Below are positions 2 to 9,000 of a stretch of 52,876 nt of DNA, one piece after another. Position 1 is the first letter of the stretch; each line of letters starts with the position of its first letter. This stretch comes from Minisyncoccota bacterium (GTDB lineage Bacteria > Patescibacteriota > Minisyncoccia > JAHIHE01 > JAGLIN01): assembly GCA_023142595.1 (NCBI GenBank), contig JAGLJF010000024.1:1-52876 (forward strand). Direction: 5' to 3'. The position numbers and the translations under genes were made by a program. Under the pieces are notes generated by a model that was not told the origin of the DNA, did no database searches, and saw only the letters and a program-made list of their open reading frames with translations.

Positions 2-3000
2 ACAAAACTTGATCACGAAATTGAAAGCTACGACAATACTACAGGAGAAATTCAAGCTTGGGTAAAAGTCCCCACAGTTTCATCTTCAACTGACACCACA
101 ATTTATATCTATTACGCCAATTCATCCATAACCACTTCTCAAGAAAACATTGCTGGCGTATGGGATGATGGGGGAGCAAATAACTTTAAAATGGTCCAAC
201 ATCTCAGTGAAGATCCATCAACAGGCGCTCCTCAATCAATAGATTCCACTCAATATAATAATGACGGAACATCAGCTGGAACGATGCTCACGGAAGATCA
301 AGTCGCTGGACAAATCGACGGAAGTTTAGATTTTGACGGCACGGATGATTATGTGGATATGGGGAATGATGGGAGTTTGGATATTACGGATGAGATTACG
401 ATTAGTGTGTGGGTAAAAACAATCATTGGAATACAACAAAGTTTCGTTAGTAGTGATGATAATAATAATAGAAATTTTGCATTACAACTTAAAAGTGGTA
501 CATTTTTTGCCAATTTTTATCTTTTTAGAGGTGGTTCTTCAGCTGTTTCAAATTTAGAAGGAACAACATATATACCAGACGGAGAATGGCATCATATAGT
601 CGGAACATTCACAAGCGGAAACCAAAAATTATATGTAGATGGGATAGTAGAGGCAACGGGAACTGGTATTGGAAGTATTGATACTGATCCTGTAAGTTTA
701 ACTATTGGTGCAAGAGAAAATGGTATGGATAGACTAACCAACGGCCAAATCGACGAAGTCCGTATTTCAAACACAGCCCGCTCAGCTGATTGGATAGCTA
801 TAGAGTATAATAATCAATCAGAACCAACAGAGTTTTATTCTCTTGGCATTGAAGAAGTACAAGCTCCTTCTAATCTTTCAGCTTGGTCATATCGAAAAGC
901 AATTACCATAGACAACACCAAAGTCTCAGGAAGTTCAGACCTCGCAAACTTCCCAGTTCTCATCAATCTCCCTACAGACACAAACCTTGCAACAAACGCT
1001 CAAGCAGATGCAGATGACATCCTTTTCACAACAAGCTCAACAAACTGGGCAACAGCAACTCAAAACGACAAACTTGCCCATGAGATTGAAAGCTATACTT
1101 CTGCCACAGGAGAACTTCAAGCTTGGGTCAAACTCCCAACCCTAGATTACAACGACGACACCACAATCTATATGTATTATGGAAATGGGAGCATTGCGTC
1201 TCAACAAAACCCCACTGTAGTCTGGGATTCAAATCACAAAATGGTTCAACATCTCAGTGAAGACCCATCCACCGGAGCCCCTCAATCAATCGACTCCACC
1301 CAATACAGCAATGACGGAACATCAGGAGGGACGATGACCAGCGGTGATCAAATCGCCGGAAAGGTTAACGGGAGTTTGGATTTTGACGGGATGGATGATT
1401 ATGTTGATGCGGGGAACGATGCGAGTTTGGATATTACGGATGCGATTACGATTGAGATGTGGGTAAATCCTTCCACAATAAATGTTAGGCGATATGGAAT
1501 GCGTAAAGGTGACGCATTCTATTTGATGACGACAGAGAGTGACGGAAAGGTGTTGTTTCGTTTTTGGGATAACTTAGGTAATATTAAAACAACACACGGT
1601 GATGTTAATACAATTATCCCCGCATTGAGTTGGTCTCATATTAGTGCAATTTATGATGGTACATATGCGAAAATCTATATTAATGGTGTAGAAAAATACA
1701 GTAGTGACGCAGATGAGGGGACCACATTAAATACAGTCGCAGATTACTTGAGGATTAGTGCAAATGAATTCTACGGCTCCATGGACGAAGTGCGCATCTC
1801 AAACACCGCTCGCTCAGCTGACTGGATTGCTACAGAGTATAACAATCAATCAACTCCCACAGAGTTCTATTTTATAGGCATTGAAGAAGTACAAGCTCCT
1901 TCTAATCTCTCAGCTTGGTCATATAGAAAAGCAATTACCATCGACAACACCAAAGTCTCAGGATCATCAGACCTCACCAACTTCCCAGTTCTCATCAATC
2001 TCCCTACAGACACAAACCTTGCAACAAACGCTCAAGCAGATGCAGATGACATCCTTTTCACAACAAGCTCAACAAACTGGGCAACAGCCACTCAAAACGA
2101 CAAACTAGCCCATGAAATTGAAAGCTACATTTCTGCCACTGGAGAACTTCAAGCTTGGGTTAAATTTCCTACACTAGACTATAACGACGACACCATAATC
2201 TATATGTACTACGGAAACGCCACCATTGCGTCCCAACAAAACCCAACCGCAGTCTGGGACTCCAATCACAAAATGGTTCAACATCTCAGTGAAGACCCAT
2301 CCACAGGAGCGCCACAATCCATCGACTCCACACAGTATAGCAACGACGGAACATTAGGAGGGACGATGACCAGCGGTGATCAAGTTGCAGGAAAGATTGA
2401 TGGGAGTTTAGATTTTGATGGGACAGATGATTATGTAGATGCGGGGAATGATGGGAGTTTGGATATTACTGGTAGTTTTACTATTGAAACATGGTTTAAT
2501 CCTACTATATGGAATGATGGAGTAAATGGGGAGAAAACATTAGTTAATAAAAATGATTATAATGGTGGTAATCAGGAAGGATGGATTTTTGGACGGAGAT
2601 GGAGTAGTTCTGAAGGTATTGAATTTGTTATAAAACACGGTGATGGAACTACTGATGGTTTAGGTAATGTTGGAAATATAGAAGCAATGAAAGGAACGTG
2701 GGTTCATGCGGTGGGAGTGTTTAATTCTGGAAATTATATTAAAATTTATATAAATGGAGTTGAGATAGGAAGTGATGATTCCGTACAAACATCTTTTGTT
2801 AATACCGATATTAGAAATACAAGAATAGGAAAGCGTTCAGATGGAGGTGCTTATTTCCAAGGCTCCATCGACGAAGTCCGTATTTCAAACACAGCCCGCT
2901 CAGCTGATTGGATAGCTACAGAGTATAACAATCAATCAACTCCAACAGAGTTCTATTCTCTTGGTATTGAAGAAGTACAATCTCCTTCTAATCTCTCAGC

Positions 3001-6000: not shown

Positions 6001-9000
6001 TGATATCATTTTTAGTAGAATTGGTGCAGGGATTACTGATACTTTTTATGGTGGCCAGATCGACGAAGTCCGTATCTCTAACATCGCTCGCTCTGCTGAT
6101 TGGATTTTGACAGAATACAACAACCAAAACTCTCCATCTACATTCTCTGCTCTCTCATCAGAACAAGTTTATGAAGTAGCTATCACAGGAACTGGAACTC
6201 AAACAGCTGGAGCAAGCCAGACGATTACTATCACTGCTAAAGATGTTTTAGGGAGCACCATCACAACATTTACAGGAGATAAATCAGTTATCTTTTCTGG
6301 CGCTAATGATTCTCCCAACTCAACTACACCAACTTGTTCCGACAAAGATTCAGCAGACATTGATTTTGGATCTGCGACAACTCTCACTTTCACAAACGGA
6401 GTTGCCACCTGCGATCTGAAATTATACAAAGCCGAAGTTGCCACGATCACCACCGATATCAATGATGTGACTGACACAAATCTTTCCGTCACAGTTTCAC
6501 CAGCAACACTGGAAAACTTTCTCGTTGACGCTCCCGCTAGTTCTGACTCAGGCTCGGCATTTTCAACGACCATTACTTCTCGAGATGTATATAATAATAC
6601 CACGACAACAGTGACGGGCGACACGACTCTCACTGTCAATCAAAGTGGCATCATTTCTCCAATCACAATTACGAGCGCCAATTTTTCAGATGATGGAATC
6701 TACACTGACAATCTCACCATCACTAACATCACCGAACAGCCATCTGCGACAATCACCGCTACTAATGGATCGTCAACTGGCACAGATAATATCTCTATTC
6801 TGGGAATTCCAGCAGACCCGACTTCCGCCTCAGCTTCCAGAAATTCAGATACGCAGTTTACCATCACTTGGCAGGATAATTCCACAGTGGAATCAGGATA
6901 TAAGATTGAAAGAAAAACTGACACGGGTTCAGGCTTTGGAGCATACTCTCAAATTGGAACTGCCAGCGCTGATGCCACTTCTTTTGTCGATAACTCCACC
7001 AACAATCCAGCTGACCCACCCCAAGCCGATGAAAGATATCAATATCAGCTCAGAGCATATAACACAATTGGAAATTCAGCGGGATATTCTGAAGACTCTG
7101 TTATTCATTACACCACTGCTGGAACTCCATCAAATATTACTGGAACATATGCCAGTGATACTCAATTTTCAGTCAGCTACACCGACACCGCTTCAGTGGA
7201 AGACACTCACCGAATTCAAAGATGTTCTAATGCCAATTGCACCGTCACTTATGAAACAGATCTGGGAACATTTGAATCATCTCCTCAAACAGACTCCACA
7301 AGCGTTTTTGCAAACTCCCGATATCGTTGGCAAGCAAGATCAGAAACTCCCGATTCTCTTTATTCTGCTTATGCTTCATCTAACTATGAATATACTACTC
7401 CGACTGCTCCAATCATTGGAACTCCTGCTTTTGTTTCTAACACTGAAATCACAGTCAATTGGACAGACAATTCTGATTATGAAGACGGATTTCGAATTGA
7501 AGTTTCCATTGATGGGGGAGCGTACGCAGAAATCACTCCTGGCGCAAACACGGTGGGAGCAAATATCGAAAGTTATGCCTACACTTCAACTGCTAATCAT
7601 AACTATAAATTCAAAATCAGATCCCATGTTGGATCTACTGTCACCAATTCAGAACTTCTTTCTGCTTATTCTGATGAATCAACTGAAATTTATACAACCG
7701 CTTCATCTCCTACGATTGGAACATCCACTGCTGATTCATCCACAGCGATGACATTCAACTGGACAGACAACTCCGCTTTTGAAGAATCATTCAGATTAGA
7801 TTTCACGACAGGAAATGGTACAAATGTCGATGACATCACAGCAGACCTTGAAACTTATCAAGTGACAGGACTGACTCCCAACACTCAATACGCAGTTCAC
7901 ATTCACAGCTACCGATCTGACACGGGAGAATCAGACGCTTCTGCAAGTTCATCTGCTCTTTATACACTTGCCAACATTCCTTCAAGCCTATCTTTTGTAG
8001 CTGACAGCATAACTCAAATCACAGCTTCTTGGAACGCAAATTCCAATCCAGCAGGAACAGAATATTACATCCAAAACGCTACTGAAGGAACAAACTCAGG
8101 CTGGATCGCTGACACCTCTTGGATCTCTTCTTCTCTGGGTTGTTCCACTTTCTATTCTTTCCAAATCAAATCCAGAAACGGAGACCTTGTTGAAACTGCC
8201 TATACAACCCTCACAAGCTCTTCAACTCAAGCTTGCGCAGTACTTCCACCAGGAATTTCAAATCCGCCAGCTGAACCAGAGCCGACACCAGAAAATCCAA
8301 TAGCAGATTTTACTGTAGTAATTAATAATGATGACAAATATTCAAACAGCAAGACAGTGAATTTGAAATTCAACGCTGGATCTGATACAGCCAGGGTGGC
8401 AGTTTCAAATACAGAAGATTTTATTGGCGCCGCGCAAGTTCCATATCAAGAAGAGATTGAGTGGGCGTTGTCGGAAGATTGTTTTGACGGTAGAGACGCA
8501 GCAGTGCTACGTCTCTACGAAGCGTGCAGTGTTTATACTAAATTCTATACTAAATATGGAGTGGCATCCAAAATTGTTTCCGATGACATTATCCTCGACA
8601 CTCAAGTTCCAGAATTGATAATCGGCACCGAGCAAGATTTGTATAATCAAGGTGAAAGCATTTTGATTTATGGAACATCAGAACCTTTCGCTCAAATCAC
8701 TTTCAACCTTAATGATAACTTTATCAGCACAGATAGTGTTGATAATAATGGTTATTGGTCAATTAGACTTGATGATCTTTCTTTGGGATTATACAATCTT
8801 GTGGTTACAGCAGTAGATGAAGCAGGGAATGAGAATTCTAGTTTGGTGATTTTTTCTGTAAATGAAATCCTAAAGGATGAACTCCGAGACGATCAAGATA
8901 AAGTCCGAGATGATGAAGATGAAATCCTAAAGGATGAATTCCAAGACGATGAAAATGAAATTACAGAAGATGAACTCCGAGATGATGAAATTAAAGAAGA

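Follow-up and report, generated by a model that had tools for sequence, protein, structure and literature searches.

The stretch of DNA analysed here (the window, 52,876 nt) is contig JAGLJF010000024.1 of a Minisyncoccota bacterium. It is contig C17 of a genome (G000; assembly GCA_023142595.1) of 1.04 Mb in 74 contigs, which is 98% complete. Its best named protein match is to a record of Paceibacterota, which belong to the ultra-small bacteria of the candidate phyla radiation. Our subject is a giant surface protein gene at positions 2..10162 of the + strand, encoding 3386 aa and truncated at its 5′ end by the contig edge. The protein is composed of six units, each pairing a DUF2341 scaffold with a LamG_3 domain, followed by fibronectin type III (fn3)/Ig-like domains and a hydrophobic C-terminal segment. 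Judging by their match to PF13385, the LamG cores may have a lectin-like role; a sequence search of the PDB with unit 3 returned no solved relative. The + strand of the window is the G-rich, leading-type strand, and also bears rpoB, rpoC, ftsK and recA. Strand bias in this genome is strong, with a four-fold degenerate G–C skew of +0.22 in leading-type genes and −0.20 in lagging-type genes. When 802 ORFs were compared, the giant gene alone supplied 27 of the 41 windows with the most extreme synonymous G–C values. The skew within the gene has two layers: ~48-nt arms, one at either conserved end of a LamG core, and a separate C/A bias that extends across the scaffolds. The array is laid out as follows.

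320..367, + strand: left arm 1, with G-rich/C-poor synonymous codons, encoding the LDFDG..DY motif
368..736, + strand: variable LamG core 1, 34% GC
737..784, + strand: right arm 1, C-rich/G-poor, encoding the G.IDEVRIS motif, core-side edge sharp
785..1369, + strand: DUF2341 scaffold 1-2, C/A-rich, a putative legacy composition
1370..1417, + strand: left arm 2
1418..1768, + strand: variable core 2, 38% GC
1769..1816, + strand: right arm 2
1817..2401, + strand: DUF2341 scaffold 2-3
2402..2449, + strand: left arm 3
2450..2854, + strand: variable core 3, 34% GC
2855..2902, + strand: right arm 3
2903..3487, + strand: DUF2341 scaffold 3-4
3488..3535, + strand: left arm 4
3536..3931, + strand: variable core 4, 28% GC
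3932..3979, + strand: right arm 4
3980..4564, + strand: DUF2341 scaffold 4-5
4565..4612, + strand: left arm 5
4613..5008, + strand: variable core 5, 32% GC
5009..5056, + strand: right arm 5
5057..5641, + strand: DUF2341 scaffold 5-6
5642..5689, + strand: left arm 6
5690..6046, + strand: variable core 6, 29% GC
6047..6094, + strand: right arm 6
6095..8281, + strand: post-array Ig/fn3 region, silent sites C-rich (four-fold G–C skew −0.35)

The arm signature lies in synonymous choices, as a preliminary description of this DNA had proposed, and the flip is present in every one of the six units. None of 2000 synonymous permutations within the array reached the observed left-minus-right G–C score (1.24, against 0.31 ± 0.09). 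With amino acid, neighbouring amino acids and genome controlled, the six left arms contain 20 third-position G where 7 are expected and the six right arms 51 third-position C where 12 are expected; a control for codon-pair context left the signal unchanged. Anchoring the alignment on the F of FDG in the left arm and the D of DEVR in the right arm placed the signal at codons about −4 to +11/+12 of each core end, with a sharp edge at −4. In units 1–4, a G-rich shared stretch extends ~30 nt past the left arm. The favoured codons are GGG, AGT, GTG, ACG and TTG in left arms, and CGC, GTC, ATC, AAC, TCC, GGC and GAC in right arms, and the same amino acids are written with opposite codons on the two sides (GAT/TAT/TTT on the left, GAC/TAC/TTC on the right).

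The skew persists at four-fold degenerate sites, where it can be read on either strand. Relative usage on the coding strand, taken over 98 domains, was G 2.03, A 1.00, T 0.72 and C 0.45 in left arms, and C 1.89, T 1.12, A 0.40 and G 0.53 in right arms. Expressed for the strand that runs 5′ to 3′ into the core, the left and right values are G 2.0 and 1.9-fold, A 1.0 and 1.1-fold, T 0.72 and 0.40-fold, and C 0.45 and 0.53-fold. Since G is raised and both C and T are lowered, the arms are aptly labelled G-rich/C-poor and not GT-rich. The preliminary description, which had called the in-running strand GT-rich, was thus right about G but not about T, and the bottom strand of the right arm is not G/T-rich across the class (A.29, C.22, G.25, T.24). 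The strengths of left and right arms correlate (rho 0.49, n=98).

The skew is tied to the variable cores. Left-minus-right z was 3.44 at 208 unique cores, against 1.48 at 28 cores with a relative of at least 50% identity elsewhere (nominal p 3e-4), and it rises as the core becomes more AT-rich than its genome (rho −0.47 with GC at third codon positions of the core). Conserved motifs internal to the domain carry no skew (mean z 0.11, n=149; 0.30, n=110). There is no mid-core flip, both core halves being A/T-rich and C-poor. A pattern of G on the left and C on the right is its own reverse complement, so the orientation of the gene cannot separate symmetric, replication-linked and transcription-linked causes; polarity was not reversed in C-rich strand contexts (11 domains, and 12 domains from a partly overlapping set of genomes).

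To define the spread of the signature, 32 genomes were searched within the order and 251 sampled within the class. Most of the loci of the order were taken, along with 60 class regions picked among the top-scoring matches. Removal of duplicates and anchorless domains reduced 358 rows to 176 domains, and the class-wide set holds 236 domains. Within the order, the left arm exceeded the right in 24 of 24 genomes, and among other orders of the class it did so in 44 of 51; two interior control windows differed in 12/24 and 26/51 genomes. In controlled comparisons, 99 other domains of the order showed left arms with G at 1.80-fold and C at 0.59-fold and right arms with C at 1.75-fold and G at 0.58-fold; for 131 domains from the 51 genomes of other orders, left G was 1.36-fold and right C 1.66-fold. 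A second DUF2341-linked core type has the same polarity in G006 (+3.8/−4.3) and on contig C58 of the source genome (+2.3/−4.6), as does an insert slot in the arrays of G003 and G017. Stand-alone LamG domains on contig C3 of the source genome show no flip. The preliminary description had suggested looking in LamG arrays of other members of the candidate phyla radiation (CPR): the pattern recurs across the class, but 17 domains (4 sources) from other CPR groups outside it gave no signal. Viral contigs with LamG arrays also show left-G/right-C polarity (L335 and L194; for example z +2.5/−2.5 and +1.0/−4.2), and phages may share or ferry LamG cores.

Comparison with congeners locates the breakpoints of exchange. 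The last unit of the window and the orthologous slot of congener G003 share 89% identity in the scaffold and 93% over the next 300 aa, but only 24% in the core. DNA identity drops at left-arm codons +8..10 and recovers at right-arm codon −5, and G002 and G007 display the same swap pattern. Thus, unrelated segments occupy orthologous slots, and the breakpoints lie at motifs shared at the DNA level. At the level of sequence comparison, this shows swapping of whole cores with the arms as the apparent swap points. Similarly, among DNA matches between different genes (at least 80% identity over at least 35 nt; 176 domains), 158 fall in left arms, 152 in right arms and 96 elsewhere, and 4 extend across a core. 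A few cores (L115 of G003 with L055; L133 of G012 with L130 of G018) have relatives of 63–84% identity in other genomes, with dissimilar upstream or downstream sequence, and are candidate recent transfers.

Read data were available as contigs of four runs from one cold-seep study, which is possibly the source of the assembly itself. Of the 24 loose contig ends listed (602 in total), 16 lay no more than ~50 nt from a left arm, which indicates that the left arm is common to many other contigs. No contig in the four runs spans the array, and they do not confirm the unit order. Joints from left arm to right arm across unknown sequence (e.g. 384 to 2854) may represent further units or other organisms. 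Silent donor cassettes were not found, as all 10 LamG matches of the source genome lie in long open frames, although repeats may be unassembled. Profile matches in this genome include RecA, ComEC, DprA and a 1110-aa ORF with a PD-(D/E)XK domain; there was no match to MutS, nor to reverse transcriptase (PF00078).

The mirror-polarised arms point to a built-in, strand-specific recombinational capture of foreign binding domains. Our tentative reading, to which we give a little under an even chance, is that the arms serve as crossover sites, with an in-running strand whose composition is tuned so that it anneals to divergent donors despite mismatches. Whole LamG cores (~350–400 nt, presumed to bind ligands) would be replaced through the two ~48-nt arms, from other genes or from genomes of the community, probably by a RecA/competence route. 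Donors would share just the two terminal protein motifs, written in arbitrary synonymous codons, and the joint would therefore be a mismatched heteroduplex. Following a break or gap, the 3′ tails of the recipient may prime inward on the stranger DNA in the manner of a degenerate primer pair in the polymerase chain reaction. As G is the most and C the least mismatch-tolerant base, placing G in and C out of the in-running strand should capture more donors; an inward-running strand that is G-rich on both sides makes the coding strand G-rich on the left and C-rich on the right.

Several calculations are consistent with this reading. In the nearest-neighbour mismatch tables of Biopython, G.G, G.T and G.A range from −0.5 to +0.2 kcal/mol, against +1.4 to +2.0 kcal/mol for C.A, C.T and C.C, and the order observed for the in-running strand, G > A ≥ T > C, fits mismatch tolerance. 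Annealing to 51 non-CPR LamG donors, in comparison with neutral recodings, gained 1.3 kcal/mol for the top strand of the left arm and 2.6 kcal/mol for the bottom strand of the right arm, while the opposite strands gained 0.3 and 1.0 kcal/mol. Predicted codon gain correlated with enrichment on the in-running strand (+0.47, +0.46) and inversely on the other strand (−0.55, −0.38). We consider it possible, though doubtful, that the whole class practises a recombinase-free capture in which silent codons encode inward-facing, mismatch-tolerant ‘primer’ arms that harvest cores from any environmental LamG gene.

A number of observations weigh against tuning for annealing. The thermodynamic test is tied to the very composition that it would explain, and a plain G–C count is an equal or superior predictor of codon enrichment (rho 0.82 vs 0.76; −0.66 vs −0.59). 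The top strand outperforms the bottom strand in just 3 of the 6 left arms of the window, and the T deficit is not fully explained by a mismatch table that sets A ~ T. Gains of 1–3 kcal/mol are modest, and RecA pairing differs from free annealing. No donor of any window core was present among the 176 domains, and global identity to the cores of sisters and congeners is 18–35%. In the four runs, each core lies on contigs with 0–1 differences, and switching within the population was not observed. Nor was an enzyme identified that would make the break. A weak trend in the same direction exists outside the class (72 domains; left>0 in 16 and right<0 in 18 of 23 sources), and the left arm scores above the right at 27 of 39 loci from metagenomes (60 domains) and at 14 of 17 from viruses (31 domains). 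In G024, G028, G042 and G096, the second core type gives no clear signal. It should also be noted that p-values are overstated because the genomes are related.

The skew could instead be a by-product of repeated heteroduplex without mismatch repair, either as a conversion drive, in which G-bearing donor strands (such as, in natural transformation, the 5′ arm of the single strand taken up) are favoured for integration or repair synthesis is strand-biased, or as a mutational footprint. The mirror geometry and the link to unique cores are equally expected under this explanation, the genome has ComEC and DprA and no MutS match, and some arrays (L062) show a graded rise of G toward the left arm and a decay of C past the right arm. 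Yet a simple deamination form of the mutational footprint raised in the preliminary description fails: C-to-T deamination predicts T-rich left and A-rich right arms, and four-fold T is 0.72 on the left and A, the most depleted base of the right arm, 0.40. The boxes are also sharp-edged and shorter than typical tracts, and we regard this explanation as unlikely. Somewhat less probable still is that the arms were homogenised for exchange and inherited their consensus from founders on the leading strand (left) and the lagging strand (right). Arms are indeed common at the DNA level between genomes, and synonymous identity of left arms is 0.57 against 0.45 expected, but that of right arms is 0.42 against 0.40, which indicates a bias and not one copied sequence; moreover, the polarity holds against leading-strand pressure in 75 genomes and is shared by unrelated core types. 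Such inheritance does fit the scaffold, with its G021-like usage and singleton changes (see below).

The preliminary description had offered, as one of two possibilities, a DNA-level signal based on the preference of RecA for GT-rich tails. The signal itself is supported by persistence at four-fold sites, by the swap breakpoints and by weaker skew at vertically conserved cores, and the proposed 3′-tail geometry fits the mirror arms; the RecA rationale is not borne out. Left 60-mers are 63–73% G+T in all six units, and RecA dissociates most slowly from TGG repeats and is least stable on CCA at low RecA, in the accessible part of the report (PMC3763553). Against TGG- or Chi-like tails, T is depleted at four-fold sites; TGG is 1.08-fold and GGT 0.91-fold in left arms, and in right arms both fall below shuffles (TGG 0.47-fold of shuffle on the bottom strand). 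GATGCGG, the best of the shared inverted words, ranks 2461 of 16232 across the genome and shows no over-representation there, and the same part of that report describes no enhanced RecA nucleation on TG-rich DNA (PMC3763553). We find this route improbable. We also give little credence to transcription or translation as the cause, whereby an R-loop spanning the core would open at a G-clustered left arm and close at a C-rich right arm, or elongation at domain ends would be tuned by the arms. GGG runs are more frequent in left arms than in recodings (1.19 vs 0.59 per arm), and a self-reverse-complement pattern means that gene orientation does not distinguish this cause from a symmetric one; the runs, however, equal those of composition shuffles (1.21) with no canonical G-quadruplex (G4), opposite codons for the same amino acids in the two arms rule out selection for accuracy, and neither the unskewed internal motifs nor the link to unique cores is explained.

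Further candidates were rejected. An arm–arm stem is no more stable than shuffles (duplex −19.1 vs −18.7 kcal/mol; 104 domains), with no cognate preference or single register, and pairing across 235 domains was not distinguished by flank-usage recoding (p 0.62) or non-cognate arms (p 0.06). No hairpins exceeded composition, 0 of 104 domains held a canonical G4, and G4Hunter scores equalled shuffles. No fixed word of the type of Chi or the FtsK-orienting polar sequences (KOPS) was both polarised and over-represented genome-wide. A diversity-generating retroelement is not supported, given the lack of a reverse transcriptase match and cores that differ by indels and are 18–35% identical, not by template-adenine changes. 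For an integron or shufflon, no structured sites or pairing beyond composition were found, and the PF00589 matches sit on other contigs.

The second layer of skew has its own history. The preliminary description had extended the right-hand C/A richness through the scaffold; right arms are C-rich, but the scaffold is a separate matter and its composition is not general. The hand counts given there were exact (positions 1371–1430: G25, T19, A12, C4; 1921–1980: A26, C17, T10, G7), and the latter stretch falls in DUF2341 scaffold 2-3. Four-fold usage in the five scaffolds is A.45, C.27, G.03 and T.24, and T at codons ending in a pyrimidine (NNY) is 0.43, outside the range of the 567 genes that encode 200 aa or more. 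As the post-array region is C-rich too, the bias is not limited to the repeats. The composition of homologous scaffolds varies between genomes, from C/A-rich in some to G/T-rich in L063, L064, L069, L070 and L075, and in G021 a DUF2341 gene located on the C-rich strand resembles the window scaffold (A.48, C.23, G.08, T.21). Singleton differences among the six scaffold copies run C>T 11 times against T>C 3 times, and A>G 5 times against G>A once. We infer that scaffold C/A richness is a lineage-specific legacy, of lagging-strand or foreign origin, that is apparently ameliorating to genome usage and is apparently confined to this genus. Taken together, the earlier observation is partly confirmed, and at the arms is stronger than claimed; its interpretation is partly supported.

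Other features were observed around the array and elsewhere in the genome. Contigs C58 (2-2623, − strand) and C38 (2-5791, − strand) hold further mosaic surface-protein genes with C-rich right arms and C/A-rich patches; the C38 gene has one LamG and the C58 gene two DUF2341-linked cores. Downstream of the giant gene, a Y1/IS200-like transposase gene (10413-10952, + strand) is broken by an in-frame stop at 10809-10811; we take it to be RAYT-like (REP-associated tyrosine transposase, REP denoting repetitive extragenic palindromic), and the genome has 6 Y1_Tnp matches. Clusters of REP-like repeats flank it at 10169-10395, 10966-11084 and 11500-11596. They contain CCTAAAGG, the most over-represented 8-mer of at least 50% GC in the genome, and copies occur on other contigs including C3, C38 and C58, which also bear LamG or DUF2341 genes. 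Inside the giant gene (8859-9085, + strand), the same unit is translated in frame into an acidic repeat, NEILKD; the linker of G003 at this position is also acidic but unrelated, and a contig joining 8800 to 9074 was found in two metagenome runs. Directly after recA, a cluster at 24416-30288 (+ strand) encodes DNA methyltransferases (D12-class adenine, C5 cytosine, N6/N4) and a GHKL ATPase.

The arms pin the swap points of CPR proteins that probably recognise hosts to two signed segments of ~48 nt, in 75 genomes. With such a signature, synonymous recoding becomes a simple way to test the mechanism, and other swappable domains might be sought by the same key; if capture through mismatch-tolerant arms is correct, G on the left and C on the right would mark swappable domains in general, whatever their family, and would reveal strand geometry from sequence alone. 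A search of the open literature, which leaves most subscription papers uncovered, turned up neither mirror-polarised arms nor a skew in LamG flanks. A flip of purine skew reportedly occurs at mouse recombination hotspots, and the arms may be a bacterial counterpart of it.

Chi presents its G-rich strand oriented 5′ to 3′ toward the break. The arms resemble Chi and RecA-preferred TG-rich DNA (PMC3763553, in its accessible part) in running the G-rich strand 5′ to 3′ toward the break on both sides, but differ from Chi in having no fixed octamer, no genome-wide over-representation and no TGG enrichment. The arms parallel Borrelia vlsE in their strand-specific G enrichment: there, too, a recombining locus for a surface protein gains G by the use of rare synonymous codons (GGG). 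At vlsE, the accessible portion of the report describes G-runs all on the coding strand, flanks of 17-bp direct repeats, adjacent silent donor cassettes and G4 formation (PMC3585125); here the polarity is inverted between arms, and neither G4 nor donor cassettes were found. VARTIG of the Thermococcales likewise involves the in situ replacement, by recombination, of the binding domain of a large surface protein, with no integrase nearby. It concerns an Ig domain in archaea, exchanged between strains and species, with breakpoints spread over ~600 nt and promoting features stated as unknown in the available text (PMC8416519), whereas the breakpoints described here all fall in two arms of ~48 nt that bear a measurable signature. 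In gp38/gp37 of T-even phages, hypervariable recognition segments recombine within or near conserved motifs, and as in our array a specificity segment of ~400 bp is swapped via conserved flanks; unlike gp38, ours is a cellular class with a mirror G/C polarity at silent sites, the accessible part of the phage account describing no strand-specific synonymous composition (PMC3157838). Adhesin segment swapping at conserved motifs was thus already known, as far as the accessible parts of these reports go (PMC3157838, PMC8416519), and what appears to be new here is the mirror-polarised silent-site arms.

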